64,000 nucleotides of DNA from a virus: the IMG/VR virus record IMGVR_UViG_3300008117_006295, positions 1 through 64,000 of that record; one strand, 5' to 3'. The translations under genes and the position numbers were made by a program. A model generated the notes under the pieces. It did no database searches, had not been told where the DNA came from, and worked only from the letters and a program-made list of their open reading frames with translations. Each line of letters starts with the position of its first letter. The stretch's first letter is position 1. This document shows, one piece after another, positions 18,146-61,346 of the stretch.

Positions 18146-18159
18146 TATAAAGGTAATAT

Positions 18160-18818: not shown

Positions 18819-18824
18819 AGCTCC

Positions 18825-33848: not shown

Positions 33849-33849
33849 A

Positions 33850-36842: not shown

Positions 36843-36866
36843 ATGAATATCAAAATAGGAATACTT

Positions 36867-41100: not shown

Positions 41101-41101
41101 G

Positions 41102-41842
41102 ATGGCTAAAAAAACTATTGTATCTACAGAAAATACTATCGAAATAACAGAAGCAAAAACTGTTGTTAAACCAGCTATGCACAGCTTAGAGTGGACAGAC
41201 TATGTACTAAGCTTATTATCAGATGATGAAAAAATAAAGGGCAATCCAACAACTGATGGATTAAGAAGAATATTTGAAATTGCTCTGGATTGTACTGTTG
41301 TTACATCTTCAACCAAAGTAGCACAGTGTCCCGACCATAATAATGAAAAAAGAGCCACCGTGGTTCACTCCATAGGCTATATTTTAAATTCACCGACCAA
41401 GGAGACAGAAAAACAAAACACGATCAATATAGATGGTGCCGCTGACGTTTACTGGGGGAATTGCGATAAGATCTATAGAAATCATCCAGTAGCAGTTGCT
41501 GAAACAAGAGCAGAAGGACGAGCATTAAGAAGAGCCCTGAGATTACGCAAAGTGGTTGCCGCAGAAGAAATAGCCGAAAATATCGAAGACCATGTTGATG
41601 GAGATAGTATAGGTAAAATAACACCAAATCAGATTAATTTTATTGATGTTTTAGCAAAAAGACTTGATATTAATATATCTAAAACGTTAGAGAAACTTGC
41701 TTTATCAAACGATAATATCTATAATATTAAATATGACGACGCTGTTATTATTGTCAAAACACTATCAGATTTCCAGCAGGATCACTCAAAAATGTCGTCG
41801 GATCTTATTGGATATGATGAAACATGGAAACATAGATCATGA
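41102..41842 (+). CDS. Possible ssDNA-annealing (Rad52/Sak-like) protein
   Basis: AVAETRAEGRALRRAL motif and ITPNQI C-terminal module; AGGAG RBS. Confidence 0.4.
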   Translation: MAKKTIVSTENTIEITEAKTVVKPAMHSLEWTDYVLSLLSDDEKIKGNPTTDGLRRIFEIALDCTVVTSSTKVAQCPDHNNEKRATVVHSIGYILNSPTKETEKQNTINIDGAADVYWGNCDKIYRNHPVAVAETRAEGRALRRALRLRKVVAAEEIAENIEDHVDGDSIGKITPNQINFIDVLAKRLDINISKTLEKLALSNDNIYNIKYDDAVIIVKTLSDFQQDHSKMSSDLIGYDETWKHRS

Positions 41843-42168
41843 AAATTTTCTACAAAGTTAATGATAAGCTCACTTTTGAATTAGAGGCAGAAGGTCAAAA
41901 AGAAATTTTTAAAGAACTAGCAACTATTCAAGAGATTTTTAGCGAAGAAAAGTGCGGACTCTGTGGAAGTACCAATATTAAATTTGTTGTTAGAAGCGTT
42001 GATGGTAATGATTATTACGAATTAAGATGTAATGATTGTGGAGCTGTCTTAGCTTTTGGTCAACATAAAAAAGGTGGCACTTTGTTTCCAAAAAGAAAAG
42101 ATGATGATGGAAATTATATGCCCAACAAAGGTTGGCATAAGTTTGTAAAAGATACTAAGGATAAATGA
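41839..42168 (+). CDS. Zinc-ribbon hypothetical protein
   Basis: CGLCG...CNDCG. Confidence 0.6.
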   Translation: MKIFYKVNDKLTFELEAEGQKEIFKELATIQEIFSEEKCGLCGSTNIKFVVRSVDGNDYYELRCNDCGAVLAFGQHKKGGTLFPKRKDDDGNYMPNKGWHKFVKDTKDK

Positions 42169-43811
42169 ATAATACCACTATAGTAACAGGTATTTGGGAT
42201 TTAGGAAGAGACTCTCTTTCTGAAGGCTGGGGAAGAAAATTCGATCATTATATAGAAAATTTTAAAAGATTACTAAGTATACAAGAATTAAATCTTGCTA
42301 TATTTATTGATTCTTCCCTTGAGGATCTGGTATGGAAATATCGTAATAAAAATAATACGGTAGTTTATAAACACTCTATAAATGAATTTAATGGAGCGTT
42401 TTTCCCATTTTTTGACCAAGTACAAAATATACGTTTATCTGAACAGTGGCAGAATCAAGTAGGTTGGTTAAAGGATAGTACTCAGGCAAAAATGCCTTTG
42501 TATAATCCTATGGTTATGAGCAAAATGTTTTTATTACATAATGCTAAAATATTTAATCCATTTAATAGTACTCATTATTTTTGGTTAGATGGAGGAATAA
42601 CAAATACTGTACATCCAGGATATTTCAGCCATGATAATGTAATAGAAAAAATAGAATCTATTACAGAAAAGATGCTATTTGTATGTTTTCCTTATGAGAC
42701 TAAAACAGAAATACATGGTTTTGATATTAATGCAATGAAGAGATATGGGAAAAACAATGAGATAAATAGAGTTGCCAGAGCAGGTTTTTTTGGTGGACAC
42801 AAAGATTATATTTCATCAGCAAACACACTATATTATTCTTTATTGCAAAGTTCTTTAAATGAAGGATATATGGGTACTGAAGAGAGTATCTTTACCCTTA
42901 TGACATATCTTGAACCAAATACATATCATATTGAAATGATTAATGAAGATGGTTTATTAAGTACATTTTTTGAGAATGTAAAAAATAATACTACTAAACA
43001 AGATAAAATTAAAACAACACAGAATTATAAACATAATAAAATATCTTTATATATTAATACTTTTAATTCTCCAGAACAATTACAAATGGTTTTGGACTCT
43101 TTCTCTAAACATGATAAAAGATTTATAGAAAATACTGAAAAAATTCTTATTAATAATTCCACTAAAAATGAGTTATTTGAAAAATACGATAATATCTGTT
43201 CAAAGTATAACTTTATAGACCATATCAAAAAAGGTAATCTTGGTATTTGCAGAGCAAGACAGTTAGCCGCAGAACACTTTAAAGAATCTGGTAATAAATA
43301 CATGTTATTCTTTGAAGATGATATGCTTTTAGACTTTAACAATAATTGTGATTTTGGTTTTAGTAAAAATGTTAAAGATCTATTTACTAATATGGTTAGA
43401 ATTATGGATTTGGAAAAATATGATTTTTTAAAATTAAGTTTTAGTGAATTTTATGGTAATAATGGTCAACAGTGGAGTTGGCATAATGTTCCTAGTCCAA
43501 AAAAAGAAGAATATTTTGGTAATATAAATTCAAAACCTCCAACAAAATTTAATACTATTCATAGTTTAAACAGTGTTATTTATGCTGATGGCGAGATTTA
43601 CTATTCAAACTGGCCTCATATTATAAGTCAAGAAGGTAATAAAAAATGCTTCTTAGATACAACTTGGAATAGTCCATTTGAACAAACATGGATGAGTCAT
43701 ATTTATAGTTTAACAAAAAACAATATAGTCAAACCAGCAATACTATTACATAGTCCCATAACACATAATAGAGTTCATCATTATGAAGCCAAAGACAGAA
43801 AAGAAAATTAA
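42165..43811 (+). CDS. Two-domain glycosyltransferase: HtrL/YibB (WlaTC)-like plus a GT-A domain
   Basis: TIVTGIWDLGR, NPFNSTHYFWLDGG, GFFGG, GTEES; second domain NLGICRAR...FFEDD. Confidence 0.75.
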   Translation: MNNTTIVTGIWDLGRDSLSEGWGRKFDHYIENFKRLLSIQELNLAIFIDSSLEDLVWKYRNKNNTVVYKHSINEFNGAFFPFFDQVQNIRLSEQWQNQVGWLKDSTQAKMPLYNPMVMSKMFLLHNAKIFNPFNSTHYFWLDGGITNTVHPGYFSHDNVIEKIESITEKMLFVCFPYETKTEIHGFDINAMKRYGKNNEINRVARAGFFGGHKDYISSANTLYYSLLQSSLNEGYMGTEESIFTLMTYLEPNTYHIEMINEDGLLSTFFENVKNNTTKQDKIKTTQNYKHNKISLYINTFNSPEQLQMVLDSFSKHDKRFIENTEKILINNSTKNELFEKYDNICSKYNFIDHIKKGNLGICRARQLAAEHFKESGNKYMLFFEDDMLLDFNNNCDFGFSKNVKDLFTNMVRIMDLEKYDFLKLSFSEFYGNNGQQWSWHNVPSPKKEEYFGNINSKPPTKFNTIHSLNSVIYADGEIYYSNWPHIISQEGNKKCFLDTTWNSPFEQTWMSHIYSLTKNNIVKPAILLHSPITHNRVHHYEAKDRKEN

Positions 43812-45090
43812 GAAAAAAACAAACATTGTAGAAACCCCAAATACTATTTTTGTACAGATAGCCTCTTATAGGGATCCTCAGTTATTACCCACAATTGAGG
43901 ATATGTTACGTAATGCTAAATATCCAGAAAATATAAGTATTGGTATAGCATGGCAGCACTGTAATAGTGATACTTGGGCGGATATAGAAAAATATGCTGA
44001 TGATAGCAGATTTAAAATTATAGATATACCATATGAAGAAAGTAAGGGGGTTTGTTGGGCCAGAAATAAAGTTCAACAACTATATGATGGAGAAAAGTAT
44101 ACTCTGCAAATAGATAGTCATCACAGATTTGTTAAAAATTGGGATGAAATATTAATTAATATGATAGTTGATCTACAGAATAATGGTTATGATAAGCCAT
44201 TATTAACAGGATATATACCGAGTTTTGATCCTGATAATGATCCTGCTGCAAGAGTTAATACTCCGTGGAAAATGAACTTTGATAGATTCATACCAGAAGG
44301 AGCGGTATTTTTTCTACCGGCTAATTTTGACTCTTGGGATGATCCAACAAAACCATTGCCAGCAAGATTCTATAGTGCGCATTTCGCTTTTACAGTAGGA
44401 GAATTTTGTAAAGAAGTTCCTCATGATCCATATTATTATTTTCATGGAGAAGAAATTAATATTGCAGCCAGAGCTTATACCTGTGGATATGATCTATTTC
44501 ACCCCCATAAAGTAATATGTTGGCATGAGTATACCAGAAAAGGCAGAACCAAACAATGGGATGATGATAAGCATTGGGGAGCCAGAAATACAGAATCTCA
44601 TTTAAGAAACAGAAAACTCTTCGAGATGGATGGAGAAAAAAGAGATATAGATTTTGGAAAATATGGATTTGGTAATGTCAGAACACTAAGAGACTATGAA
44701 AGATATTCTGGTCTTAGTTTTAAATATAGGGCCATACAACAGGATGTTTTGGATCATAAGCCTCCACCAGATCCGTCTAAAGATTTAACAGATGAAGAAT
44801 TCGATAGCAAATTATTAAAAATATTTAAACACTGTATAGATATTGGATATAATCAAGTTCCAGAAAATGATTATGATTTTTGGGCAGTAGCATTCAAAGA
44901 TGAAAATGGTCAGGATATGTACAGAAAAGATGCTGATAAAGAAGAAATTATAAGGATGAAAAATGATCCTGATAATTATTGTAAAGTATGGCGAGAGTTC
45001 CAAACGGATAAAAAGCCTCATAGTTGGATAGTTTGGCCGCATAGTATTAGTAAAGGATGGGCAGATCCAATTACTGGATTTTTACCATGA
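43783..45090 (+). CDS. GT60-family polypeptide/hydroxyproline alpha-GlcNAc transferase homolog
   Basis: IFVQIASYRD, SKGVCWAR, LQIDSH.RF..NWD, LLTGY, FYSAHFAF, VPHDP, FHGEE, GYDLFHP. Confidence 0.82.
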   Translation: MKPKTEKKIKKKTNIVETPNTIFVQIASYRDPQLLPTIEDMLRNAKYPENISIGIAWQHCNSDTWADIEKYADDSRFKIIDIPYEESKGVCWARNKVQQLYDGEKYTLQIDSHHRFVKNWDEILINMIVDLQNNGYDKPLLTGYIPSFDPDNDPAARVNTPWKMNFDRFIPEGAVFFLPANFDSWDDPTKPLPARFYSAHFAFTVGEFCKEVPHDPYYYFHGEEINIAARAYTCGYDLFHPHKVICWHEYTRKGRTKQWDDDKHWGARNTESHLRNRKLFEMDGEKRDIDFGKYGFGNVRTLRDYERYSGLSFKYRAIQQDVLDHKPPPDPSKDLTDEEFDSKLLKIFKHCIDIGYNQVPENDYDFWAVAFKDENGQDMYRKDADKEEIIRMKNDPDNYCKVWREFQTDKKPHSWIVWPHSISKGWADPITGFLP

Positions 45091-45698
45091 TTAATAATTT
45101 TTGTTTTCTTAGTGAAGCTAATTATCCTAATTATGTTAATAGGATACAACAATATTCTATTCCAAGATATTTAGAACTTAATATTAATATACCTTTTTAT
45201 ATAAGCACTAATTATAAAAATTTATTTAAAGAAGAATATTTAAATCATGAATATATTAAAATTTATGATATTGAAGAACTTAGAAAAAATAATATCAAAT
45301 CTCAGAATTATGAATTATTACCGTCAGATCCCACAGGAATATATCCAGCAAGATATCCGTGGAATTTAAGACGTTTTATTTTAGAAAAAGCCATAGATGA
45401 TGGATATTTAGGATTATTTTTTATAGAGTGCGACACTAAGATTCATCCTGGTATTAATAATAGTCGTTTAATAGAACTAATGAATAATCTTTATAGTCCC
45501 AATACTGTTAAAACCTCATCTGCTAGATTTGTTTATAAAAACAGATCTCCAGCTTGTGTGTTTGATTATCATAATGAGTATATAAAAGATTTAAAATTAA
45601 ATTTTAATGATGAGGATTATGATAGTCTGGATGGAACAAATCAATTATTTTTTGGTAAAGATACAGAGAGTTTGAAACAATTTATTAATACATACTGA
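45087..45698 (+). CDS. Glycosyltransferase-like protein, apparently C-terminally truncated
   Basis: YPWNLRR...FFIECD DxD-like motif; a short reading frame continues out of frame after the stop. Confidence 0.5.
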   Translation: MINNFCFLSEANYPNYVNRIQQYSIPRYLELNINIPFYISTNYKNLFKEEYLNHEYIKIYDIEELRKNNIKSQNYELLPSDPTGIYPARYPWNLRRFILEKAIDDGYLGLFFIECDTKIHPGINNSRLIELMNNLYSPNTVKTSSARFVYKNRSPACVFDYHNEYIKDLKLNFNDEDYDSLDGTNQLFFGKDTESLKQFINTY

Positions 45699-45755
45699 AA
45701 CACCATTTATAACAGAACATTCTTTTGATGATAGGTATTAAATTACAGTATTATT

Positions 45756-47276
45756 ATGTTTAAAATATTAGATTCTAAATTAGCAGATGCCGGATTCTAT
45801 ATAAATCTTGATGAGTCTATAGAAAGGAAAAATTTTATAGAAAATCAGAAAGAAATTTTTAGTATAAGTAATCTGGAAAGGTTTTCTGCTTTATCTAATG
45901 AATTAAGACAATCATCTTGTACAGAAAGTCATAGGGCAATTTTTAGAAAATGTATCAATAATGGTATTAAAAAAACATTTGTAGCAGAAGATGACTTTGT
46001 TATAAATGCAAAATTTAATTTCTTAAATAAGAATATAGAATTATCTAGTATTTTAGAGTATCTGGTAGATTTTGATGATTATGATGTTTTAATGTTTGGA
46101 TGTAACCCTAAGAAAAAACTTATAGTTCAAAGTAAATATATAGCAAAAAATTTGAGTAGCACAGGAGCCTGGGCATATATAATAAAAGAAAATGCTATGA
46201 AATATATATTAGATAACTATAATTATAGAAAAGATTACTGTGCTATAGATGATATATTACCAAGTTTAAATGGTAAAGGATTTAAAACAGTTGTAACATT
46301 ACCACAAATTTGTAATCATAGAGATGGTATAGAATCAACATTACAGCCACATGTTGGAGTAACACACTACTCTACTTGGATAAATGGTAATTGGGATAAA
46401 TATTTTTTTGATTATATAAAGAATGAAGATGAGCTAATCAAGTCTATAGATAATGAATATCTAGTACCTCAAAAATTAACTGTTGTTATAACGGGACATT
46501 CTGTAGAAAATTGGCTATTCCACCTAAGATATTTATTACAGAGTATGCCAAAAATATTATTTGATTGTCATTTTATAGTATGTTATGATAATTTTAGTTA
46601 TGATGATAAGTTTAATTTATCAAAATTTTTTAGAGATGTTAAATCTGAAATACATCCAACTATAGAATATGTTAATGGTGGATTGATTAGTTCTCTTAAA
46701 AAAGTTTTATCATGTATTAATACAGAGTATTTTCTATGGTTAGAGCATGATTGGGTATTTTTAAAACAAAATATAGACTTTTTCAATATTATTAAAGCAA
46801 TGGATAATAATAATTTTATTAATTCAATATGGTTAAATAAAGACGATAATAATCCTAGGGGTTTTGATATTTGCGAATATAATAATAAAATAACTCCATA
46901 TGAACTAGACAATAGAATAGACGAATGCGATATTGTAACCACATGCAGATGGTCAAATAATCCTGCTATACATAGAACATCAAGAATGAGAGAATTATTT
47001 GATAAGTATATTAATAATGAATATGTAGATTTAACTAATCAAAGATCTCATAATATAGAAGAGAAAATAATACCAATTTACCGTAAAGAAATTGAAGATT
47101 ATGGTTGGGAAGCAGTTAAAGACACTTGGGGTACATATGTATACGGTAATTTAAATGATAGCCCTTGTATGGGCCACACAGACGCTACAAGAAGGTATCA
47201 GGGAGGAAGCAAGTCTATGCCAGAGATCAATGGCGAGAACTATATAAACCAAAATCCTTTAAAAGATAGTGATTAA
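45756..47276 (+). CDS. Two-domain glycosyltransferase: GT25-like plus a GT-A domain
   Basis: YINLD...R, RFSA, C..SH, AEDD, AYII, IDD; second domain YFLWLEHDW and WSNNP. Confidence 0.8.
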   Translation: MFKILDSKLADAGFYINLDESIERKNFIENQKEIFSISNLERFSALSNELRQSSCTESHRAIFRKCINNGIKKTFVAEDDFVINAKFNFLNKNIELSSILEYLVDFDDYDVLMFGCNPKKKLIVQSKYIAKNLSSTGAWAYIIKENAMKYILDNYNYRKDYCAIDDILPSLNGKGFKTVVTLPQICNHRDGIESTLQPHVGVTHYSTWINGNWDKYFFDYIKNEDELIKSIDNEYLVPQKLTVVITGHSVENWLFHLRYLLQSMPKILFDCHFIVCYDNFSYDDKFNLSKFFRDVKSEIHPTIEYVNGGLISSLKKVLSCINTEYFLWLEHDWVFLKQNIDFFNIIKAMDNNNFINSIWLNKDDNNPRGFDICEYNNKITPYELDNRIDECDIVTTCRWSNNPAIHRTSRMRELFDKYINNEYVDLTNQRSHNIEEKIIPIYRKEIEDYGWEAVKDTWGTYVYGNLNDSPCMGHTDATRRYQGGSKSMPEINGENYINQNPLKDSD

Positions 47277-47279
47277 TTT

Positions 47280-47876
47280 ATGTTTAATTTTACTAATGCT
47301 AATTTACTATTAAATAGACCAAATCATACGATAGATGCTAGTATAATTTCAAAAGAACAGATAAGATATATTTTAGCAGTGCTAGATAGTGTATTAAGTC
47401 AAAATATTCAAGGAGACGTTGTTGAATTTGGATGTTATGTTGGCGAGTCATCAAAATATTTAAGAATGATGCTAGATCATCATTTATCTACAAAAAAATT
47501 ATATGTTTATGATTCTTTTGATGGATTACCTCCATTAAGTAAATATGAAGAAAATACTGGGTGGCAACCAGGAACATTAAAAACATCAGAGTCCGTATTA
47601 GTAGAAAATTTTTATAACAATGGATTAAAACCACCAATAATTACTAAGAATTGTTTTGGATTTTTGGATGGTGATTTTTATGATAGTATTTATGATAGTT
47701 TATCTAAAGCCTATCCTCTATTATCTGTTGGAGGATGCTTAATGTTTCATGATTATGAAAGAAATGATCTTCCAGGAGTAAAAGCAGCTATAATAGATTA
47801 TATGAAAAATTATAATGATAATTCATATACTTTAATTAAAATTTATGAACAACTGGGATTATTAATTATTCTATAA
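47280..47876 (+). CDS. TylF/MycF/NovP-family sugar O-methyltransferase
   Basis: IQGDVVEFGCY.G, YDSFDGLP, LDGDFYDS, HDY, GVKAA. Confidence 0.88.
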   Translation: MFNFTNANLLLNRPNHTIDASIISKEQIRYILAVLDSVLSQNIQGDVVEFGCYVGESSKYLRMMLDHHLSTKKLYVYDSFDGLPPLSKYEENTGWQPGTLKTSESVLVENFYNNGLKPPIITKNCFGFLDGDFYDSIYDSLSKAYPLLSVGGCLMFHDYERNDLPGVKAAIIDYMKNYNDNSYTLIKIYEQLGLLIIL

Positions 47877-50800
47877 TATTATCTTTTCTTAATAAAATAT
47901 TTTCACTAAATATTGCACTATCCCAAGTAGGCTTAAAACTACTAAGTGTTGGTAATGTTGCTCCTGAAATATCAGATATATATTGTGAATTGTGGATATT
48001 AATATTTGGATTACTAGTATATGGATAATTAACATATGTTAATTTTGTTGTTTGTATATTATTAGCTAAATTAAGACTATCCTCATAATATAAAATATCG
48101 TCAACATATCCATTATTATAGAAATTATAAAAAACATATCCGTCATTAGAATTATACGTTAACCATGGAGCTTGTTGTTGTAGCCAGCCGGTGTATATAT
48201 CATTTCTCTTAATATCTTTTCTTCTAATAGTATTGGTAGATATTTGATGTCTAGATCCTATATTATCTAGTCTAGTAAAATTAGTTTGATAACCTTCAGC
48301 ATATTTAATAGCATATAATTTATCAGAATTATATACACTCTGATTTGGAACAGCAAACCTGGAAATATATGGCGAAGCATTTTTGAAATAAAAATCTATT
48401 AACTGTAAGGGACCAATAGGAAAACTATAGTCCTTAATATTTTTATTATATATTTTATTATTAAGATAATACTCTTTCCATGTTGTATTATAATCTATAA
48501 CAATTGCTTCTGGCGCAGAAACGTATCCTCTTCCAGGATCCGTAATTGTTACAGTTTCAATAATACCCTTACCGGTATATATTGAACCTAATATATCTTC
48601 GCTAATATCTATAGAGTAAGTCGCCTTTCCTCCTATACCTCCTCCTCCAGAAAAATAAATCTCAAATTTTCTTAAATTATAATCGCCACTATTTGTTTGT
48701 GGGAAAAATCCTTCTCCTCCATCTATAACATCTACATTAGATATCTGTCCATACTGATTAATTTGTACTAAAAATTCTGGTTTATGATTCCAACTAGTAG
48801 GTACTCCGGGAGTTTTGCAAATTAATGTACTATAACTCGAAAAACCTGTAGCGTCTGATATAGTAAGATCACTATATATATATCTACTATATCCATCAGC
48901 TATAGCTTGATTGTTTTCTAATGAATAATATTCTCCAACATCAGGATAACTATAAGAATAATTATCAAATAATCTAATAAATTTACTAGCTCCATTTAAA
49001 GATAGAGTTGCAGATTCCGTATCTCCTAATTCGTCTTCAATAGCTAAAACTGGATTTACATCAAAAAATGCTAACATATTAATATGGTGATCGTCATTAT
49101 TATAAGAATATCCAGATGGACAAATAAACCCACAGCGAGTTCCTGAGGGCCAATAGCTTGAATAATAAGAATCATATATTGGAAATGATAGTCCTATTAT
49201 CTCTCCAGAAACAGAAAAAAATGGATCTATAGGATAAGTAATAAATGTTCCAGAACTCACAGATTCATCATAAAAATATTCTGTAATATAGTTTGTGGTG
49301 CAACTAGCATAATTATTTTCGATATTTATTAATGAATTTATTTTATTAATATTTCCATAAGCATCTATAATTTTATCTATATAGTATAATTGATCATATA
49401 TTGATGAATATTTATTTGTTGTAATATACTGATCCTCTGTACTATTTTCACAATATCCTGGTATACCTGTTGTTGATATTGCTATAGATGAAGATTCTAA
49501 AAATGTTTTTGTAAAAACTAATGTAGTATCATCAAAAGCTATAATTGGTTTTTCATTAAATAAATAACCAGATAGGGTAGAGCAATAGTACTCACTACCG
49601 CTATAGTTAATATTGTAACTATTAGTAATAAATTTATTATCAGCTACATATGCATTATATGGTAATATTTCTCCACTAGAATCTTTCATAAGATCATTTA
49701 TTAGAATTTTTTGAATACCATGAATAGTTTGACCATATAAATATATGCCAATAGATTTATTGGAATTACAAGTATTGTAATCATCTCCTCCATCTGTAAT
49801 TTTAATATTTGAACATATTCCTTCTATTTTAGCCTGAGCTTTTGCTGGTTTAGATATTGAAAACTGAGAAAAATCTTTTTGCTCTCCATTTATAATTACT
49901 TGAGGTGGATAAGAATAATTTTCTCCATTATTCGTTATGGTTGCTCCCAAAACTTTATAATTTACTTCTGGAGTAAAAGAACAAGGGGTTCCACTATGAG
50001 TAGACTGTAATATAACTTCGGCTTGGGAATTAATCGGTCCATCTCCACCTTCGAATAAAATTCTAACATTTGGAGTACCAGAAGTTAAATTTAATCCAGG
50101 GTCAGATATGTATACTTTATCTAAAGTTCCAGATAATGTCAATCTAATTTCTAAACCATATCCTTCATCATTGGAGTTAATACTAATATACGGAGCTGTT
50201 TGGTAAAATTGTCCAGGATTATCTATATTTATCTGTGTAACACTGCCATCTGATATTAATGCTGTAAGATTTGCCCTGACTCCTTTTATAGGATTATAAC
50301 CTCCTATTAAATTAATTGTCGGCGCAATAGTATAATTATATCCAGTATTTAATATATCTATTTTACCAATAGAATAATTTATAGAAGCTATAGCTTTTGG
50401 CTCTCTTGTTTCTTTAAACGGAGAGGATATTGTACTGCCTATAATTTTTAATGTGGGTTGTGAAGCAAAAGATTGAAAATTACCAGAATCAACTATATAT
50501 CCTTCATAAGAAGCAACTGTCGGCGGAATAATTTCTACCGTTGGCTGACTAGCATAACGACCTCCATCTAGAATATTAATCTTTGATACTCCATAACTCA
50601 TTCTTGGAATTATAATAGCGTCACTAGATACAGTGAAAATATTAGTTGTATGACTTGGGGTCACAGTATGAGTAGCAGATACTGTACATGTTGGGGACGA
50701 GGTTTTTGTTATAGTCGGTGTTGATGTAGATGTTTTAGTAATCGTTGGAGTTTGAGTTTTAGTCTTTGTTACTGTAGGAGTTGGACTAAAAGATTTAGTA

Positions 50801-51915
50801 ACGGTTGGGCTTGGCGTTAATGTTTTAGTAACAGTTACTGATGGAGTAGGAGTTACTGTTGGTAAATTAAATGTAGCAATTGGGCCATGAAGAGCCTTAT
50901 GTGTTGGCGTTATACTTATCGTATTAGTCGGCGTCGGAGTATGTGTCCAAGATGGAGTTTTTGATTTGGTAAGAGTCGGAGTAAAAGTCACAGTAGCACT
51001 TGGAGTAGCAGTATTACTAGGAGTAACAGTCGGAGTTGATGTGGTGGTTGGTGTTGGTGTTTGAGACTCAACGATAGGATATAAAAATATACTAGCTCCA
51101 CTAGGCTTAGGTAAAGTTGGTAATGGTTTTCTTTTAATAAGTATCTTTGGAATTTGAGTATAATTTTTACCAGGATTAATAATATTCACTCCTGATATAC
51201 CCCCATTAATAAAACAACAACCAGAAGCCGCAAATCCCGGTATATGTCCTTCTATTAAAAGATTTGGCGCCTTAGAAAAACCAAATCCTTCATTTATAAT
51301 ATCTAATTCTTTTATATTCCAATAATCCTCATTTAAAATACTCATTATAGGAATAATTGAAGCTCCTCCAATATTATTTTCTATTGTAATTGTTGGAATA
51401 ATATCTCTATTAAATAATCCTGGGTTTATTATTTTAGTTTTATAGATATATCCAGATATAATTGCTTCTAATTTTGCATTTTCTCCATCTCCTTCTACTA
51501 TTAGATCTGGCGCTTCGTTATACGATCCACAGTCTACTATTTCTACAGATTTTATAAATCCACTTATTTCACATATTGCTTCGGCACTTAATCCACTACC
51601 ACTAAAAATAATATTTGGTTTATCTATATAATCATTACCACCAATAAAATTATTAATATTTTCTATACTACCAATAGAAATAATATCTGCGATTGCGCCA
51701 TTACCTCCACCTCCTTCGATAGTTATTGTAGGTGGTGAAATATATCCATTACCAGTATGATCAATACCAATAGCTACAACTTTACCATTAAACTCAGAAA
51801 CGTTGCCTTCGGCTTCTTTTGGTCTTCGATCCAAATAAACACTAACTGGTATTTGTAAATTTGATCCTCTGTTTTCTACTAATAATCCATAATCAGCTAT
51901 TGGTAATATATCCAT
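47866..51915 (-). CDS. Large virion fibre/baseplate-like protein with G.GY..AP repeats and a mucin-like tract
   Basis: About ten GxxYxxxPx[IV]x[IL] repeats plus a Thr/Pro/Ser tract. Confidence 0.7.
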   Translation of the reverse strand: MDILPIADYGLLVENRGSNLQIPVSVYLDRRPKEAEGNVSEFNGKVVAIGIDHTGNGYISPPTITIEGGGGNGAIADIISIGSIENINNFIGGNDYIDKPNIIFSGSGLSAEAICEISGFIKSVEIVDCGSYNEAPDLIVEGDGENAKLEAIISGYIYKTKIINPGLFNRDIIPTITIENNIGGASIIPIMSILNEDYWNIKELDIINEGFGFSKAPNLLIEGHIPGFAASGCCFINGGISGVNIINPGKNYTQIPKILIKRKPLPTLPKPSGASIFLYPIVESQTPTPTTTSTPTVTPSNTATPSATVTFTPTLTKSKTPSWTHTPTPTNTISITPTHKALHGPIATFNLPTVTPTPSVTVTKTLTPSPTVTKSFSPTPTVTKTKTQTPTITKTSTSTPTITKTSSPTCTVSATHTVTPSHTTNIFTVSSDAIIIPRMSYGVSKINILDGGRYASQPTVEIIPPTVASYEGYIVDSGNFQSFASQPTLKIIGSTISSPFKETREPKAIASINYSIGKIDILNTGYNYTIAPTINLIGGYNPIKGVRANLTALISDGSVTQINIDNPGQFYQTAPYISINSNDEGYGLEIRLTLSGTLDKVYISDPGLNLTSGTPNVRILFEGGDGPINSQAEVILQSTHSGTPCSFTPEVNYKVLGATITNNGENYSYPPQVIINGEQKDFSQFSISKPAKAQAKIEGICSNIKITDGGDDYNTCNSNKSIGIYLYGQTIHGIQKILINDLMKDSSGEILPYNAYVADNKFITNSYNINYSGSEYYCSTLSGYLFNEKPIIAFDDTTLVFTKTFLESSSIAISTTGIPGYCENSTEDQYITTNKYSSIYDQLYYIDKIIDAYGNINKINSLINIENNYASCTTNYITEYFYDESVSSGTFITYPIDPFFSVSGEIIGLSFPIYDSYYSSYWPSGTRCGFICPSGYSYNNDDHHINMLAFFDVNPVLAIEDELGDTESATLSLNGASKFIRLFDNYSYSYPDVGEYYSLENNQAIADGYSRYIYSDLTISDATGFSSYSTLICKTPGVPTSWNHKPEFLVQINQYGQISNVDVIDGGEGFFPQTNSGDYNLRKFEIYFSGGGGIGGKATYSIDISEDILGSIYTGKGIIETVTITDPGRGYVSAPEAIVIDYNTTWKEYYLNNKIYNKNIKDYSFPIGPLQLIDFYFKNASPYISRFAVPNQSVYNSDKLYAIKYAEGYQTNFTRLDNIGSRHQISTNTIRRKDIKRNDIYTGWLQQQAPWLTYNSNDGYVFYNFYNNGYVDDILYYEDSLNLANNIQTTKLTYVNYPYTSNPNINIHNSQYISDISGATLPTLSSFKPTWDSAIFSENILLRKDNIIE
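50641..51069 (-). repeat. Mucin-like TPT/PTVT/PTIT tract of about 140 codons
   Basis: ESQTPTPTTTSTPTVTPS...PTVTKSFSPTPTVTKTKTQTPTITKT...HTVTPSHTTN. Confidence 0.9.
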
Positions 51916-51931
51916 TATAGTCTTTCTTTTA

Positions 51932-54900
51932 TTAACCTATTTTATAAGCATTTCCTAAATTATCTATTAAAATATTTCCAATAATATTATCAAAGCTGCT
52001 AGAAAAACTAGTCATATGATTATTACATAATTTAGTTATATAATACACATAAGCTGGTTCACCTATAAGATGACCACGGAGTACATTTAATTCGCCAAAA
52101 TTTGTTATTATAATACTATCAAAATTAGAATTTTTAATTGATAGTCCACTAGCCATCAAAATATCAGTATTAAGATAATGGTTAAATTTAAAAGAATCAA
52201 AACTTATTTCTTCTGGAGCTGTATAGGCAGATGTATTAAGCTCGAAGCTATAATCTATATCACTACCTGAAATACTAGTCATAGAATAACTTTCATATGA
52301 ATGCCCATTAATCATACCGATACTATTTAAATATAATGAGTTACCGCACGGAGATGCTGTCCTAGATCCTACCGCTCCATCTGCACCAGTAGGGATACTA
52401 ATGGTGTAGTTCATACCACTAGTAACTAATACTGGAAATGGATTATGTCCAGTTATTTCTAATGTTAAATCACCAGATGCTATTATCTCTCCTTGTAAAC
52501 AACATGTTGTATCTTGATATATTATTTGTGGTATTATCTTTTGTTTAACACATTGTATATCCTCTAGATTAATCGTTGGAATATTTTTGATAGTATATAT
52601 ATTATTTATACTAGCATTACCATAATATAAAGCATAATTAATATTATCGATTGGAAATATATTGATAGATTTATTTATAATAGCAGTAAAAGATCCTGTG
52701 GGACTGGTATAAGTTATTTCTGCTAGATTATATTTTGTTTCTTCTAATAAATATATTTGATCCTGCATATATCCTTGATTATTAATAAATAATTTATCTT
52801 TATTATCTATTTTTATTATTCTACCAGGAAATACTTTATCGGGAACGCTATCTTCTATAGCTGATGATACAATGCCAAGATCTAGAGCAATTTCATTATA
52901 TGTAGTATATAGTGGTTCTTCTATAACTGATCTTATTCCTCCTGTTGGCGGAGGCCATACATATGAATTACCAAAAATATAGTCATTAATATTGGGATCG
53001 CTAGTATATCCTAGTGATGTAGTATAATTTACATAAGTGATACTAGTATTATAGTCTATTCCAGAAATTATAGTATTATTAGGATCTGCATTATCATCAG
53101 CAAATAATAAACTTAATGATTGAACAGGTATTATTAATGAGTGAGAAGTATTTTTTATTGGTAAATCTGGAGGACTAATATATCTATTTATAATACGATC
53201 ATAATTAGTATTTGTATCATAATTTATATAGTCACTAGAAGGAGAACTATTAGTCAATACAAAATCACTAGTAATACTATAAGATTTACCTAATGGATAT
53301 GTTGTTAATTGATCAATTATATAAACATGATTATTTGTATCAACTCCTAAATAATTTATGATATTACCATTATCAGCAGCGATTTTTGATTCTTCATTAT
53401 CAAAAATTATATCTCCAGAAACAAAAATATTGTTTTCTGAGCATCCTACTCTAATAGGATAATCAAAACCCTGACTTAGAATAACTCCTGTAGGCTCAAT
53501 GCTATACTTATTATTGGAAATAATATTACCAGAATTGACTATAATAAAACCAAATGGACCATCTGTTGGGACCAATTCAGCAATCGCTCCATCTCCATAA
53601 CCATTACCAGGAAAATAAATTTTAGCTATCTCTTTTTTAGACATTGGAAAAATATAACTATAATTTGTAAAATCTTCTTTAAACATAGTATCAGAATCAA
53701 TTTTGCTATAATATATAGAATTTAAATAGCCCGAAACCTCAATTTCGGCAGCGGTAGGAAATGGAGGAGAAGAATTTCCATCTATAGTTGTTGTTGTAGA
53801 TTCTGTAATGCCACCAGGACCAGGCCTATTTTCAAAATAAGATTTAGTTGTTATATTACCTCTTTTAATTGTTTGACCAACAAGCGTTATGTCATTATTA
53901 ATGAAACTAGCTCCTTCTGTTTTAAAATTACCAGCTCCACTTTCACCATCATCGAACATACCAGTAGTATTGACCGTAGAGACCTCTATCCATGGTGCAT
54001 CGACTAAAGTTTGATTTATAATAGATCCTCGATAATATCTAGTAGATGATTCATTATCCCCTTTTACTGTTAAATCATAAAAGGGTAAAGAAGGATTATA
54101 TATGCCCTCTTCATAATTATCTAATCTAGAAATATATTTAGCCCCGTGAATAGGATAAGGTACTGTACTAAAATAACTAGATAGATCATTATCAGTAGAA
54201 TAATTTGATGTAAACCCTTCTCTGGTATAATTATCTGTAGTAACAGATTTTGTTCCTGTTATACAATTCCCGGCTAATGATCTGCTACTACTATAGGTTA
54301 CTTGTTTACTGGCACTAACTCCACTTGAAGAGATACTTATACTTTTAGTTACAGTAAAACTTAATGGATTATTGCCAACGAGTGTTCTGGGTAAAGTTAC
54401 AACAGAATCTTCATCTACTATACCATCTCTTTCAATGTATCCCTGGCCCTCTGCATATACTTTTACTCTTCCAGCATTAATATAATCATCATAGACTCCC
54501 CATGCGGTAAGATATTCTCCTAGAATAGCATTACAATCAAAATCCATAAAGCCACCACCCGCTGATGGAAAATCTCCAATACGAAAATAATAATAATAAG
54601 TTTCTCCATCTTCTGGAGGAGGATCTATTTCCCAAGATATTCCAAAAGTAATAACGTCTCTTATATTTAATGGAGCATGTCTAAAATAGATTTCTGATCC
54701 TGCGATTTGAGATAAAATATTCTCTTCTGGTGGAGGAAGAGCATTATTGAATTTTGTTATACCGTATATATTTTCTGGAAAAGATTGTGAAACTATAATA
54801 TTAAAATTCGATCCATAGATATTTTCTATACTACGATATAATTGATGATAATTAATACTTTTACAAATATTATCTAATGTAAAAATTGTTTTATCACTAA

Positions 54901-57580
54901 ATTCTTCATTGGTTAAAGGATCGGACGATAAAGTATCAGTTCCTGGACCATGAATTTGCATCTCAATAAAATCTGGACTGTTTTTTACGCCAGAGAGAGT
55001 AGATAAAAAAGATTCTTTAAATTTAACACATCCGCTTCTTTCTGGAACCACCATTGTATAATTATCTAAAAGATATTTTTGGCGTATACCAGAAATATTG
55101 GTAATATGATTAATAGGTATAGGTATTCCGCTATATGTAGTTGCTCCAGAAAAACCAGGATTTGAATATGCAAAATCTAATGCATATAATGGTTTATCAA
55201 ATTCTATATAATCAATATCTGAAGCATTTAAATTAATATCTGCTATTTTCCATTGTTTAAATCTTGATTTGTCTATAATACTAGTTGCGCTAGGAGTTAT
55301 TGTTGAAGTAGGAGTTTGACTTAATGTTGGAGTTGCAGTAATAGATGATGTGGGAGTTTGTGTTTTTGTAACTGTAATTGTTGGAGTATTTGTGCTAGTA
55401 CGGCTATTTGTTGGAGTTTGAGTGTTAGTTGGAGTTGGTGTTGCGGGGGTTGGGCTTAATGTTGGTGTTTTGGTATGCGTAGGCGTAGTAGATTGTGTTA
55501 ATGTACAAGTGGGAGTAAATGTTGATGTTGGTGTTGGAGTATTCGCTATACTGGCAGGAGAAGACGAAGGTTCTGGAGTAGTAGTAGGTGTAGGAGTTGC
55601 TGTATTATAGTTATTTGGAAGATATCTTGTTACATTGGGGGCAGGAGATTTGCTAGGAGTAGGCGAAGCTGTATTTGTTGTTGTAGGAGTTAAGGTTGGA
55701 GAAGCAGTTAGGCTCGCCGTTGCCGTTGGCGTAAAAGACTGTGTTGTTGTTGGTGTTGGAGTCTTAGTTTTAGTTACAGTAATTGTTGGTGTAAACGATG
55801 GAGTTGCTGTTGACGATGGAGTTAAACTTTTAGTTGGAGTACATGTTGGTGTAATAGTAGGGGTTTGCGTACGAGTAGGAGTAATACTTGGTGTTGTAAA
55901 TGGAGGAATAGACGATGTCACACTTGGAGTTGGTGTAACGAACATAGGTATACCATGTACTAATAAATCGTCATCAGCTGCTTGTAAAAGTAGTTGTAAT
56001 TTAGAAGACGCTGTTCCTGCATGAGTATATCCTGTTCCAGATTCTGCTATTTTTATACTTGAAACCTTACCTCTAATTTCACATACCGCATATGCTCCAC
56101 TACCAGGACCAGGTTCTACAATAAAAGTTTCACCATTTATTTCTACTGTTTCTAATGGTTCTGGAGAAATTATTATATTAGGTGGTTTTTTCCATAATAC
56201 AGGATTATTCTCCATATAAATCTCTAAAACACCAGAAGATTCAGGATTTAATACGGCAATAGGTATTGGTATTTCTTCAAAATTAATTATTTCTCCACCA
56301 GCCGGTTGTAGTGCGACTACTGGAGCAGAAATATATCCTGTTCCAGGGAGTATAACTCTTATCCAATCAATTGATCCACTCCATGCAACGTCAAATTCTG
56401 CATCAACACCTTCTTCATCATGATAGTATTTTGTATTGTTTTCTCTAATAAAATTATGATTATAATGATAAAATCCATCAGAATCTTTAGAAGTATTATT
56501 TACATTAAAAAGACTTGGTTTATAATATTTTAGATAAATATTCGGTTCTCTACTAAATTCCAAAATATCTAGAAATGTTGGCGGTCTACCATTTTTTTTA
56601 AAAAAAGTATCATATGTGTCAAACCATGTATAAGTATTACCCGGTATATTTTCCCATGGTTCTTCTTTTGGATTTGGTAGATCAACTAAAGAAAATGATT
56701 TTATACTAGTATTTAATCTTGCCCTAACCGCTTCTGTGTCAGGATTATATCTATAGTTTTCTGGATAAGAATAAAATCCAGAATCTGCCAAACAGTCCAT
56801 TTGTAAATGTATTTTATTTGGAACACAATATAGATCATATGTATGAGAATCTATAAATTTAGTACCACTTGGTCTTGGTGTGCCATCTGTAGTTCCGTCA
56901 TTAACTATAAGAATATTACTATCTGGTATATCTAAAATTTTAAATCCTAATCCATTAAAAATTATATCATCTCCAATTCTAGGAATATATTCTACTTCTT
57001 CTAATGATTCATATATAATTTCGTTATATATTTTATATTCACCATTTCTATTGTAATAACTACCAGTTATTCCACTAGGTGGTATAGTTCCAATTCTTAC
57101 AATTATTGGCGATCTATTACTAGATAAACATGCACCATATCTATTTTCTATTATTGGAAAAGTATTTTGGTTATTAATTGCAATTGCACCATTATATAAA
57201 TCAACACCAAAAGTATTATTCATAGTCCATATTGAGCCATCACTTTTCATCAATAATTCTATATTATTATCTCCTGTTGGTGCAATAATTACTTTTAACC
57301 AATCAGTATTTCTATCTATTTGACAATAATTATTATATATTGGTAAATTTAAATTAAAATTACCCGCACCAACTTTTCCATTTATAGACCACAGAGTACC
57401 GCTCGTGCTAATTGCAAAATAATTACCAATACTTTGCCATTCTTGAATTTCACACTTTACTGGATTTAATGATCCATCTAAATGATAATATCTTGGACTA
57501 TAAGTAGGATCACATCCTTGTGATAGATTAGTATAATTATTGTTATTACAACAATATTGCCAAAAACTCATTATAAACAC
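51932..57580 (-). CDS. Very large virion protein with RCC1-like blades, G.GY repeats and a mucin-like tract
   Basis: FAISTSGTLWS, LMKSDGSIWT; PGTGYISAP; long Thr/Pro tract. Confidence 0.65.
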   Translation of the reverse strand: MFIMSFWQYCCNNNNYTNLSQGCDPTYSPRYYHLDGSLNPVKCEIQEWQSIGNYFAISTSGTLWSINGKVGAGNFNLNLPIYNNYCQIDRNTDWLKVIIAPTGDNNIELLMKSDGSIWTMNNTFGVDLYNGAIAINNQNTFPIIENRYGACLSSNRSPIIVRIGTIPPSGITGSYYNRNGEYKIYNEIIYESLEEVEYIPRIGDDIIFNGLGFKILDIPDSNILIVNDGTTDGTPRPSGTKFIDSHTYDLYCVPNKIHLQMDCLADSGFYSYPENYRYNPDTEAVRARLNTSIKSFSLVDLPNPKEEPWENIPGNTYTWFDTYDTFFKKNGRPPTFLDILEFSREPNIYLKYYKPSLFNVNNTSKDSDGFYHYNHNFIRENNTKYYHDEEGVDAEFDVAWSGSIDWIRVILPGTGYISAPVVALQPAGGEIINFEEIPIPIAVLNPESSGVLEIYMENNPVLWKKPPNIIISPEPLETVEINGETFIVEPGPGSGAYAVCEIRGKVSSIKIAESGTGYTHAGTASSKLQLLLQAADDDLLVHGIPMFVTPTPSVTSSIPPFTTPSITPTRTQTPTITPTCTPTKSLTPSSTATPSFTPTITVTKTKTPTPTTTQSFTPTATASLTASPTLTPTTTNTASPTPSKSPAPNVTRYLPNNYNTATPTPTTTPEPSSSPASIANTPTPTSTFTPTCTLTQSTTPTHTKTPTLSPTPATPTPTNTQTPTNSRTSTNTPTITVTKTQTPTSSITATPTLSQTPTSTITPSATSIIDKSRFKQWKIADINLNASDIDYIEFDKPLYALDFAYSNPGFSGATTYSGIPIPINHITNISGIRQKYLLDNYTMVVPERSGCVKFKESFLSTLSGVKNSPDFIEMQIHGPGTDTLSSDPLTNEEFSDKTIFTLDNICKSINYHQLYRSIENIYGSNFNIIVSQSFPENIYGITKFNNALPPPEENILSQIAGSEIYFRHAPLNIRDVITFGISWEIDPPPEDGETYYYYFRIGDFPSAGGGFMDFDCNAILGEYLTAWGVYDDYINAGRVKVYAEGQGYIERDGIVDEDSVVTLPRTLVGNNPLSFTVTKSISISSSGVSASKQVTYSSSRSLAGNCITGTKSVTTDNYTREGFTSNYSTDNDLSSYFSTVPYPIHGAKYISRLDNYEEGIYNPSLPFYDLTVKGDNESSTRYYRGSIINQTLVDAPWIEVSTVNTTGMFDDGESGAGNFKTEGASFINNDITLVGQTIKRGNITTKSYFENRPGPGGITESTTTTIDGNSSPPFPTAAEIEVSGYLNSIYYSKIDSDTMFKEDFTNYSYIFPMSKKEIAKIYFPGNGYGDGAIAELVPTDGPFGFIIVNSGNIISNNKYSIEPTGVILSQGFDYPIRVGCSENNIFVSGDIIFDNEESKIAADNGNIINYLGVDTNNHVYIIDQLTTYPLGKSYSITSDFVLTNSSPSSDYINYDTNTNYDRIINRYISPPDLPIKNTSHSLIIPVQSLSLLFADDNADPNNTIISGIDYNTSITYVNYTTSLGYTSDPNINDYIFGNSYVWPPPTGGIRSVIEEPLYTTYNEIALDLGIVSSAIEDSVPDKVFPGRIIKIDNKDKLFINNQGYMQDQIYLLEETKYNLAEITYTSPTGSFTAIINKSINIFPIDNINYALYYGNASINNIYTIKNIPTINLEDIQCVKQKIIPQIIYQDTTCCLQGEIIASGDLTLEITGHNPFPVLVTSGMNYTISIPTGADGAVGSRTASPCGNSLYLNSIGMINGHSYESYSMTSISGSDIDYSFELNTSAYTAPEEISFDSFKFNHYLNTDILMASGLSIKNSNFDSIIITNFGELNVLRGHLIGEPAYVYYITKLCNNHMTSFSSSFDNIIGNILIDNLGNAYKIG
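55278..55940 (-). repeat. Mucin-like TPT tract of about 220 codons
   Basis: VTPTPSVTSS...TPTITVTKTKTPTPTT...TPTSTITPSATS. Confidence 0.9.
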
Positions 57581-59721
57581 TCCGCTGAAATTAATTCATA
57601 AATATTTCCACCAAAATTAGATATATAACATACATTCTGCTCACCAGAAATAGTATCTGGTTGAATATCTTTTAACTTATTTATAACGCTAACTGTAGTA
57701 TTAAATTGAACTAATGTAACTTCTTTGCTAGAATTTTTATCCCAAGAGCCACTATATAAGCCTTTCATCATTGATGATGATCCAGCTGAGTTTAAAGCTA
57801 TATATTTATTTGTAAATGTATCATAATATGCATAAACTAAAGAATCTTTAGGTATTAATCCTCCAATTTTATCAATAATTTCAATTTTTGCATTACCAGA
57901 AGTTTCTGTGGTTTGAGCAGTTTGACCATTTTTATCATAAATATCATCAGAATATTGAGTTATACTTTCACTATGTTCTGTAACTATAAATCCGGATGAT
58001 GAAGAGAATGGTACTAATGTATTTTCTATTTTTGCGACAACTACTTTATATGGCTGAGGACTTACCCAAACACCTCTATCGTTATCAAATCTTAAGTCTA
58101 CAGGACCAACAGGCCATGTTGATGGAGAAGATAACCAATTGTGTGGAAATCTATCAGTATTGTCTCCTTCATTTGGAATAGGTTTTCCATTTGTATCATA
58201 TCCCCAAGATTGTAATACTAATGGGCCTCTCAACCCCAAAAATCTATAATCGTCTGAATATCTATTAGGATCTTCTTTTCCATAAAAATTAGTAATAAGA
58301 CCACTTTCTGGAACAGTTTCTTCTCTTCCGACCAAGTCTAATGAATGACCATCTCCCGATCCAGAATGATGATGTTCTCCGCTACCAAAAGGATTTGTTA
58401 ATGGATTAAGATAAAATTGAGTTATATCTAGATTATATAACATTTCTCCACTTACTGAACATGGTGGATTAGGATGATTTGAAGAACTCAATAAATCTTT
58501 TTTAGTAAATTTGGTAAAAGAAGGTAATCCTCCGTCTCCATTTAATGAAATAGGTGTGAAAAAAGCATCAAGACCCATGTATGCTTTATTGCCATAATTT
58601 TCCATCATTTCTACTGCTGTTTTGGCTAAAGTACTAGTTCCAACAATAACTCTTTCAACATTTGCAGTAGCATTTAAATCATACCCACCAACTAATATTC
58701 TTTGCAATGAAGCTTTTGCAGAATTAGGTTTATTTTCTTCTCCTGATACTCGTCTATTACTATTATTAAATTTTTTGATTTGACGATTAATTTTACCTTG
58801 AGTAATTTGATTATTTCTTAAAAATCTTAGTTGTTCTGTTCTATATTTTGCAATCATCTTAAATCGCTCAATATACTGTCTTGTTAGTCCTCCAAATTTT
58901 GGAGTAAATGTTCTAAAGTCATATGATGTTGTTATTCCATTTGAACCAAAAGAAACTGATACGCCAGTTAAATTTGGACCGGTTGCACCAAATATCTGAC
59001 CAAAACCATATTGCGGCAAACCAGGAACTGTTACTCCTCCGGTTTCACCATATAACAAGCCAATATTGGCGGATTGGGCTATAGCATTTCCTGCTTCTAT
59101 CATGTATGCAGTTGATCCAAAAACCCATGGAGCTAAATCTTGATTAACTTCAACTCCTATACCACCAGAACTTGTATGGAAATTAGTAGATGCAAATGGA
59201 CCATATGTCCTGATATTACTTTTCATTGGTATAACAGCTGCTGCTGGTAAAACAGCTGCTGGTTGACCACCTTTATCATTAATTGATGCGGCATCCACAG
59301 ACGATGAAGCGTTTGACATTATATTATCAGCAGAACATACACTTTGGGCTTTAACTGAAGATGTATCTTGTAGGCTTGATGTAGACGATTGACTAGGAGG
59401 AGATGATCCAGACGATTCCCCATCTCCACCATTTGCTACGAATGCAGTAGCATTAAGAGCTTGAGCTGTCATTAGTAAGGTTGGATTAAAAACATTTTGG
59501 TTAGCAGGACATAATGAAGCAAAACACCCATCGCTAAATTTTATAACAACACCCGGTATTAAACTACTACTGGTAGTATTACTATCTGCTAAAAAATAGA
59601 TTTTTTCCTCAACATCAGCTTTTAACCATGCTCTACCATTGCTACTAACATCATCAGCCAATATTTCTGACTCAGAAATTTTACTAAAATCTAACTTAGC
59701 ACTACAGGATGTTCCAGCCAT
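57571..59721 (-). CDS. Probable tail/baseplate structural protein
   Basis: AGGAG RBS; located in the structural operon; LRGPLVL..WGYD and GPVDLR.D..RGVW motifs. Confidence 0.55.
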   Translation of the reverse strand: MAGTSCSAKLDFSKISESEILADDVSSNGRAWLKADVEEKIYFLADSNTTSSSLIPGVVIKFSDGCFASLCPANQNVFNPTLLMTAQALNATAFVANGGDGESSGSSPPSQSSTSSLQDTSSVKAQSVCSADNIMSNASSSVDAASINDKGGQPAAVLPAAAVIPMKSNIRTYGPFASTNFHTSSGGIGVEVNQDLAPWVFGSTAYMIEAGNAIAQSANIGLLYGETGGVTVPGLPQYGFGQIFGATGPNLTGVSVSFGSNGITTSYDFRTFTPKFGGLTRQYIERFKMIAKYRTEQLRFLRNNQITQGKINRQIKKFNNSNRRVSGEENKPNSAKASLQRILVGGYDLNATANVERVIVGTSTLAKTAVEMMENYGNKAYMGLDAFFTPISLNGDGGLPSFTKFTKKDLLSSSNHPNPPCSVSGEMLYNLDITQFYLNPLTNPFGSGEHHHSGSGDGHSLDLVGREETVPESGLITNFYGKEDPNRYSDDYRFLGLRGPLVLQSWGYDTNGKPIPNEGDNTDRFPHNWLSSPSTWPVGPVDLRFDNDRGVWVSPQPYKVVVAKIENTLVPFSSSSGFIVTEHSESITQYSDDIYDKNGQTAQTTETSGNAKIEIIDKIGGLIPKDSLVYAYYDTFTNKYIALNSAGSSSMMKGLYSGSWDKNSSKEVTLVQFNTTVSVINKLKDIQPDTISGEQNVCYISNFGGNIYELISAECL

Positions 59722-59733
59722 ATTATCTCCTTA

Positions 59734-61335: not shown

Positions 61336-61346
61336 TAATTAATCTC

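Follow-up and report, generated by a model that had tools for sequence, protein, structure and literature searches.

A candidate O-glycosylation island beside Thr/Pro-tract proteins in a large freshwater-type phage and its association with such tracts in related genomes

The window analysed here spans the first 64 kb of a viral contig of 77,131 bp (IMG/VR record IMGVR_UViG_3300008117_006295; GC content ~30%, completeness 56% as estimated by CheckV) from an uncultured large freshwater-type phage. Within it, five plus-strand genes (A to E, 42165-47876) point into the 3' end of the minus-strand gene F, which belongs to a tightly packed block of very large open reading frames (ORFs) comprising F, G, H, I, J, K and a 3820-amino acid (aa) ORF past the window. 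A preliminary description, made from the sequence of the window, had proposed A to E as a five-gene glyco island facing the Thr/Pro-tract proteins F and G. All five ORFs were found at their positions, and the coordinates confirm an 11-nt overlap (47866-47876) between the convergent genes E and F. Here, we examine this island as a candidate protein O-glycosylation system.

Assignment with hidden Markov models (HMMs), which had been suggested as a check for each ORF, placed A in HtrL_YibB, B in GT60, D in GT25 and E in TylF by Pfam. B is a GT60 member by sequence and motif: it matched PF11397 (CAZy GT60) with 262 bits vs a cut-off of 21 (E 1.3e-77), over profile positions 97-350 together with an N-terminal stretch, and phrog_24687 with E 1.7e-178. 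Its DxH motif (D111-S112-H113, in QxDSHHRF) was invariant in 20 aligned sequences, including that of the cultured Xanthomonas phage XacN1. Replacement of DxD by DxH is a hallmark common to GT27 and GT60 (PMC7185993), and characterised GT60 enzymes transfer alpha-linked N-acetylglucosamine (GlcNAc) onto Thr of Thr-rich peptides, for which Mn2+ is required (PMC3769586); GlcNAc transfer is the predicted activity of B. The N-terminus of B is Lys-rich and has no hydrophobic segment, indicating a soluble form and not a Golgi-type membrane-anchored protein, and its C-terminus carries a conserved extra region of ~100 aa. The N-domain of A matched PF09612 (E 4e-15, 56.6 bits vs a Pfam cut-off of 24.1) and stayed below the NCBIfam equivalog cut-off (53.8 vs 264.9), so A is a member of the HtrL_YibB family and not an orthologue of E. 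coli YibB. Its C-domain matched phrog_842 (E 5.5e-5), with further weak matches to GT2 and to TET-associated glycosyltransferases (TAGT), and had HtrL/GT2 viral clusters as structural neighbours (TM 0.64-0.86). Sequence searches of the PDB with A, B, C and D returned nothing meaningful.

The remaining genes encode two further glycosyltransferases (GTs), one of them broken, and a methyltransferase. C, previously called a GT-like ORF, gave no HMM hit, whereas a model of its 253-aa family showed a GT-A fold (pLDDT 93) with retaining GT6/GT8 enzymes as the nearest Foldseek neighbours. In the window, C is 97% identical to the 253-aa protein P0123 across 203 aa and then lacks ~33 residues, nearly invariant ones among them, owing to a ~100-nt deletion and a frameshift; the last 16 residues of the family are readable in another frame (45691-45741). 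This damage may reflect either a real pseudogene or an assembly error. The N-domain of D belongs to GT25 (PF01755; E 3.7e-9, 37.2 bits vs a cut-off of 24), and its model (pLDDT 90.7) aligned over its full length to the two-domain glycosyltransferases LH3, Mimivirus R699, K4CP and COLGALT1, and in Foldseek also to Mimivirus R655 and beta-1,4-galactosyltransferases. E matched TylF (PF05711; E 1.5e-18, 67.4 bits vs a cut-off of 23) in two stretches, and a sugar hydroxyl is its predicted substrate. With the folds of the C and D models, all five enzyme assignments of the preliminary description hold.

F and G were each said to carry a Thr/Pro/Ser tract, which is borne out by composition statistics. 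F contains two adjoining tracts (aa 275-341 and 348-426, ~150 aa) with 34-39% Thr and 14-16% Pro, including 6 PT[VI]T units and 11 TPT, while the tract of G consists of 36% Thr, 19% Pro and 13% Ser, with 24 TPT and 3 PT[VI]T. Outside the tracts Thr amounts to ~6.5% in both proteins, and among the ORFs of the 77-kb contig T+P+S reaches 65% or more over 40 aa in F and G alone. The non-tract repeats of F matched PHROG virion structural, baseplate wedge and tail fibre families (E 6e-28 to 1e-9), and G had no Pfam, PHROG or Atlas match. The designation of both genes as structural is thus well founded for F and suggested by gene order for G.

Table 1. Genes and features of the contig and of two related genomes. 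Positions refer to the window unless a record is named.
Feature	Position	Strand	Description
A	42165-43811	+	HtrL/WlaTC-type N-domain (aa 3-256) and GT2-like C-domain (aa ~280-548)
B	43783-45090	+	Soluble GT60-family glycosyltransferase, proposed initiating polypeptide GlcNAc-transferase
C	45057-45741 (ORF 45057-45698)	+	GT-A-fold glycosyltransferase family gene, broken in the window
D	45756-47276	+	Tandem GT-A glycosyltransferase: GT25 N-domain and second GT-A domain
E	47280-47876	+	TylF-family O-methyltransferase
F	47866-51915	-	1349 aa; tail/baseplate-type repeat protein; Thr/Pro tract aa 275-426 (DNA 50638-51093)
G	51932-57580	-	1882 aa; no recognisable fold; 231-aa Thr/Pro/Ser tract aa 543-773 (DNA 55262-55954)
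H, I, J	57571-63263	-	Upstream genes of the same block as F and G; no HMM hits
3820-aa ORF	G000:C1:65051-76513 (past the window)	-	Heads the block; no Pfam/PHROG match at E<=1e-3
DegT/DnrJ/EryC1 sugar aminotransferase	520-1443		Second glycan-related cluster
Two GT2 genes	1810-3366, 3359-4105		Second glycan-related cluster
IMPDH/GMP-reductase-like gene	4990-6120		Second glycan-related cluster
GT4	6117-7232		Second glycan-related cluster
Poly-Thr linker sites	G020 17520-19046, 117183-119114, 228271-230097; G007 148786-149880		Thr-rich linkers in GT60-negative relatives

GT60 has been described as occurring in 'prokaryotes and protists only' (PMC7185993) and one preprint lists it among viral auxiliary genes (bioRxiv 10.64898/2026.01.21.700432). 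In metagenomes, relatives of B fell into more than 7,400 clusters (90% identity), with contigs reaching 238 kb, and relatives were also present on 247 viral contigs. Among 81 loci, that is, 80 fetched loci and XacN1, A accompanied B in 76, with identities of 60-80% (XacN1: A 39%, B 48%) and mostly different neighbouring genes. The pair was also found in four cultured phages (XacN1, Xoo-sp13, CM1 and RAS14). C, D and E recurred in only 2, 11 and 5 loci, respectively, and the region 3' of A+B was occupied by other small genes, GT-like and methyltransferase-like, that form a variable cassette. A+B is therefore the conserved core of the island and C, D and E are its variable cassette.

Gene maps revealed three unrelated genomic contexts for the island. 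In the main one, a phosphatase gene is followed by A, B and the cassette, an S8 protease, a trypsin-like protease, an HNH gene, hypervariable Thr/Pro or Pro-rich ORFs, a Volactin-like actin gene and RuvB. In the second (L051, L061, L064, L066, L069, L071, L072 and L078), two conserved genes, a Thr/Pro ORF, B, the cassette, A and a second Thr/Pro ORF lie on one strand. The third is that of the window and of L056, L057, L059 and L060, in which homologues of H, I and J flank Thr/Pro-tract ORFs and the A+B pair, the tract ORFs filling the slot between them and the island. Tract ORFs thus abut the island in the second and third contexts and frequently lie within 10 kb of it in the first. The proposal that the enzymes are encoded beside their substrates fits the window, where F and G abut the island, but adjacency is not the rule in complete relatives: most tracts of complete genomes are far from the island, spread over many virion-region genes and clustered with tail-fibre-like and Hoc-like genes. 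In relatives L007, L009 and L016, tracts are Pro/Ser-dominated and Thr-poor.

Co-occurrence of GT60 and such tracts across related phages had been set beforehand as a test of the proposal. As a proxy for tracts, whole records were searched for ACNCCNACNCCNACN, which encodes TPTPT, with the same pattern read backwards as control. All 17 GT60-positive records of at least 90% completeness contained 9-60 TPTPT-coding hits vs 0-4 control hits. In contrast, five complete records without A and B (checked by tblastn), whose ribonucleotide reductase (RNR) is 69-81% identical, yielded 1, 1, 0, 0 and 0 hits (p = 3.8e-5 in an exact Mann-Whitney test without phylogenetic correction). The backbone of the main context has been kept in negatives G007, G020 and G027, with the phosphatase gene and the S8, trypsin-like protease, Volactin and RuvB genes; their phosphatase gene lies directly beside S8 and the island site is empty. 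Compared with the positives, their Volactin and RuvB proteins are 81-92% and 78-91% identical, respectively. Positives and negatives interleave in an RNR tree, in which negative G027 is sister to positive G002 (99/96) and negative G007 is nearly identical to positive G041. RNR is no universal marker, as 11 of the 27 searched records were without this RNR and one more had just a distant match, and the tree hence represents a subset.

Because the TPTPT proxy misses poly-Thr linkers, a generic T+P+S scan of whole genomes was added. Across six genomes, it counted 1140 and 1513 tract aa in positives vs 22-423 in negatives. Negative G033 gave 94 tract aa. A pair of orthologues with 68% identity differs in the same manner: the G041 protein of 487 aa carries a tract of 194 aa (aa 7-200), and its G007 counterpart of 322 aa is tract-free. 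The GT60-positive record G044 (86% complete) had 0 TPTPT hits and contains an extensin-like (SPP)n tract that is cut by the contig end (C1:119732-122120). Since related phages without the enzymes are also without such tracts, the phage probably sugar-coats its own fibres.

A comparable arrangement was found in XacN1, a distant Rak2-like lineage with a genome of 385 kb and ~50% GC in the stretch read. It shares with the window a homologue of B (ORF334), an A-like gene nearby (ORF330) and an island converging on a giant protein of the baseplate region. Its island (GT60, carbamoyltransferase and ORF330) runs towards a GT9 gene and the 3313-aa ORF325, which has a PT tract and comes after baseplate wedge genes. 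XacN1 contained 85 TPTPT hits vs 4 control hits, located in ORF325, 350, 369, 370, 372 and 384, beside baseplate, tail sheath and head-completion genes. At least two glycoprotein bands of XacN1 virions were stained with Schiff reagent, and two annotated phage glycosyltransferases were suggested by the authors as their makers (PMC5852040). ORF334, one of the two glycosyltransferases annotated in this phage, is the GT60 homologue. In that study, ORF334 was not recognised as GT60, Thr/Pro tracts were not mentioned and the stained proteins were not identified (PMC5852040).

GT60 genes lie near Thr-rich tracts in bacteria as well. From 160 GT60 relatives found in bacterial genomes, 80 loci were kept, and 30 of these, as a raw and uncalibrated count, had a Thr-rich tract (40 aa or longer) no more than 10 kb away. 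At least 10 of the 30 tracts abut the GT60 gene directly, for example in Jiulongibacter sediminis (L278), Gemmatimonas and Saprospiraceae. In Burkholderiales, such as Ralstonia sp. 25C (L298), a protein of ~760-950 aa, whose C-terminal T/P tract measures 54-150 aa, is encoded 1-5 kb from GT60. The loci from cultured bacteria with a tract protein abutting GT60 or 1-5 kb away are L298 and L278 together with L283, L295, L306 and L316 of Burkholderiales.

Together, co-variation on a shared backbone, adjacency in independent contexts, the XacN1 locus with the stained glycoproteins of this phage, and the bacterial loci provide strong comparative support for action of the island on the tracts, as had been proposed, with the modification that only A+B forms a conserved core and C, D and E a variable cassette. 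We consider it probable that the island is a portable protein O-glycosylation module whose substrates would be the Thr/Pro(/Ser) tracts in surface proteins that the phage itself encodes, in this case F and G. Late in infection, in the host cytoplasm, soluble B would attach an N-acetylhexosamine, most likely GlcNAc from host UDP-GlcNAc, to Thr and perhaps Ser of the tracts. Its constant partner A, a double glycosyltransferase, would then add the next one or two sugars, and the lineage-variable cassette would finish and cap the chains, a task that might here fall to D and E, C being broken. Extended and densely glycosylated 'bottle-brush' fibre segments could result. We infer which sugar is donated, which residue accepts it, in what order the enzymes act and what the coat is for, and a stalk function in stiffness, adhesion or protease resistance, as put forward in the preliminary description, is speculation.

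Several observations weigh against this interpretation. Support for the activity of any phage GT60 is of a comparative kind only; the co-variation test makes no correction for phylogeny, and the history of RNR may differ from that of the genome as a whole. Sequence conservation is far higher in B than in the hypervariable proteins proposed as its substrates, and no structural domain can be recognised in G or in its neighbours H to L. Neither A nor B (GT60) was found in four incomplete contigs (82-90% complete) that contain 13-31 TPTPT hits; these contigs also lack the flanking S8 and Volactin genes, so that the region is probably just missing from them. At about half of the 80 loci, the nearest 10 kb hold no tract ORF. 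Finally, the GT60-negative G020 and G007 carry poly-Thr linkers of up to 110 aa of TTTTTDAP-type repeats, from which it follows that the island is tied to TP-alternating tracts and not to every Thr-rich linker. These linkers consist of runs of 5-12 Thr split by D/E-A-P, with one array of 110 aa.

The PT and poly-Thr linkers without an island in G020 and G007, together with the loci without a nearby tract ORF, also speak for the main rival explanation, in which the tracts serve as ordinary linkers, flexible or extended and free of modification, and the island glycosylates something else, such as tract-free virion proteins, host envelope glycans for receptor masking or superinfection exclusion, or small molecules. 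By their family names, HtrL/WlaTC, GT25 and GT2 are moreover classically enzymes of lipopolysaccharide or lipooligosaccharide synthesis. We nevertheless regard this explanation as unlikely, because it accounts neither for the genome-wide loss of TPTPT-type tracts without the island on the same backbone nor for tract proteins directly beside GT60 in unrelated phages and bacteria; the lack of a membrane segment in B likewise argues against it.

Production of a glycosylated hypermodified base that protects phage DNA against restriction, as in T-even phages and other viruses that glycosylate their DNA, is improbable. DNA glycosylation is the commonest role ascribed to phage glycosyltransferases (PMC12619734), and the phrog_842 match of the A C-domain amounts to a weak likeness to the beta-glucosyl-hydroxymethylcytosine alpha-glucosyltransferase family, accompanied by a match to the TET-associated family PF20691 that remained below the cut-off (E 0.036). 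However, no ThyA-type deoxynucleoside monophosphate hydroxymethylase (PF00303) was detected in the contig or in the complete GT60-positive genomes G017, G002 and G041 by a search that matched control genomes and covered the ThyA route, not TET/JBP. GT60 is a polypeptide-glycosylating family (PMC3769586, PMC7185993), and a role in DNA modification would leave the co-variation with protein tracts unexplained. Least probable of all is that B modifies hydroxyproline instead of Thr in Pro-rich tracts, like the cytoplasmic Skp1-type GT60 enzyme Gnt1, which B resembles in being soluble and without the anchor of the Golgi enzymes: the Pro/Ser-dominated, Thr-poor tracts of L007, L009 and L016 and the (SPP)n tract of G044 would fit such an activity, but the tracts in the window are Thr-dominated, and neither the contig nor three of four complete GT60-positive genomes contain a prolyl 4-hydroxylase-like 2-oxoglutarate oxygenase (PF13640).

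Beyond the island, the window contains further genes that may relate to glycans. Upstream, at 36843-42168, lie a GT4-like gene with a weak GtfA-like hit, a weak sugar-1-phosphate nucleotidylyltransferase-like ORF at 39277-39933 and several ORFs of no known family. Their inclusion in the island was mostly rejected: GT4_36843, o40306 and o41102 are kept in GT60-negative relatives and are thus backbone genes. A second glycan-related cluster is located at 520-7232 (Table 1). Homologues of its GT2 genes were found only in GT60-positive genomes, near their islands, and its GT4 is present in all relatives. The replication genes of the contig encode RNR, RecA, DnaB, primase and a split DnaE, which consists of two ORFs (PHP and polymerase core; finger, HhH and OB) with other ORFs in between (31974-36324). 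For H, I, J, K and the 3820-aa ORF, no usable match emerged from PHROG, Pfam or Atlas, no relatives of gene I were found in viral contigs, and a reading of the 3820-aa ORF as tape-measure protein received no HMM support. The 77-kb contig does not include genes for capsid or tail-tube proteins. The Volactin-family actin-like protein of the main context (PF25216, E 1e-62; L042:1741-2742) has homologues in 42 loci and in G007, G020, G027 and G017; its gene adjoins subtilase, trypsin-like protease, HNH and RuvB genes and is conserved in this phage group.

Serine-rich-repeat adhesins of Gram-positive bacteria are O-glycosylated in the cytoplasm by GtfA/GtfB, which initiate with GlcNAc on Ser/Thr-rich repeats, and strain-variable extension enzymes are encoded beside the substrate gene. 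The phage island would similarly pair variable extension enzymes with an adjoining candidate substrate gene. The adhesin initiator, however, is a GT4 enzyme of GT-B fold and not GT60, and the adhesin is exported via accessory Sec. The protist GT60 enzymes, T. cruzi TcOGNT-2 and Dictyostelium Gnt2, share Pfam/CAZy family and DxH motif with B and start mucin-type O-glycans that are extended by further transferases. The acceptor KPPTTTTTTTTKPP of the T. cruzi assay (PMC3769586) is Thr-rich and Pro-flanked, like the tracts described here. In contrast to these Golgi type II membrane proteins, which act on secreted or glycosylphosphatidylinositol-anchored mucins, soluble B would act in the bacterial cytoplasm on virion proteins, and its conserved C-terminal extra region of ~100 aa also sets it apart from them. 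By analogy, the phage system may work like protist mucin-type initiation and serine-rich-repeat adhesin glycosylation.

Among phages, mycobacteriophages decorate their own virion proteins by means of phage GTs (Freeman et al. 2023, as summarised in PMC12619734), a likeness in outcome only. According to the same summary, their glycans are located on the C-termini of capsid and tail-tube subunits (PMC12619734), whereas the candidate substrates here are long Thr/Pro tracts in the interior of giant proteins from the tail region. Virus-encoded, cytoplasmic surface glycosylation is also a feature of giant viruses (PBCV-1 capsid; Mimivirus fibril enzymes R655/R699), and R699 and R655 are among the nearest solved folds of D. 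The giant-virus systems, however, belong to eukaryotic viruses and have other initiating enzymes and acceptor sites. Our literature searches retrieved no description of a phage system combining GT60 with Thr/Pro tracts. To our knowledge, self-glycosylation of phage particles has been shown experimentally in mycobacteriophages only, and we know of no function assigned to prokaryotic or viral GT60 enzymes.

In a wider reading, to which we give about even odds, A+B constitutes a mobile 'glycocalyx kit' that has been repeatedly gained and lost on one backbone and is common to distant jumbo phages and bacteria. Such a kit would let mucin tracts spread through many virion proteins and provide a mucin-like coat, the glycan of which varies among lineages with the swappable cassette. 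If this is true, it would be the first function of a prokaryotic or viral GT60 enzyme, and phage virions would be glycosylated in a second way that differs in mechanism from the known one. A mucin-like glycan coat would then be borne by a large share of big aquatic phages, which would matter for how they adsorb and withstand proteases and grazers, for particle stickiness and carbon export, and for the immune recognition of therapeutic phages.

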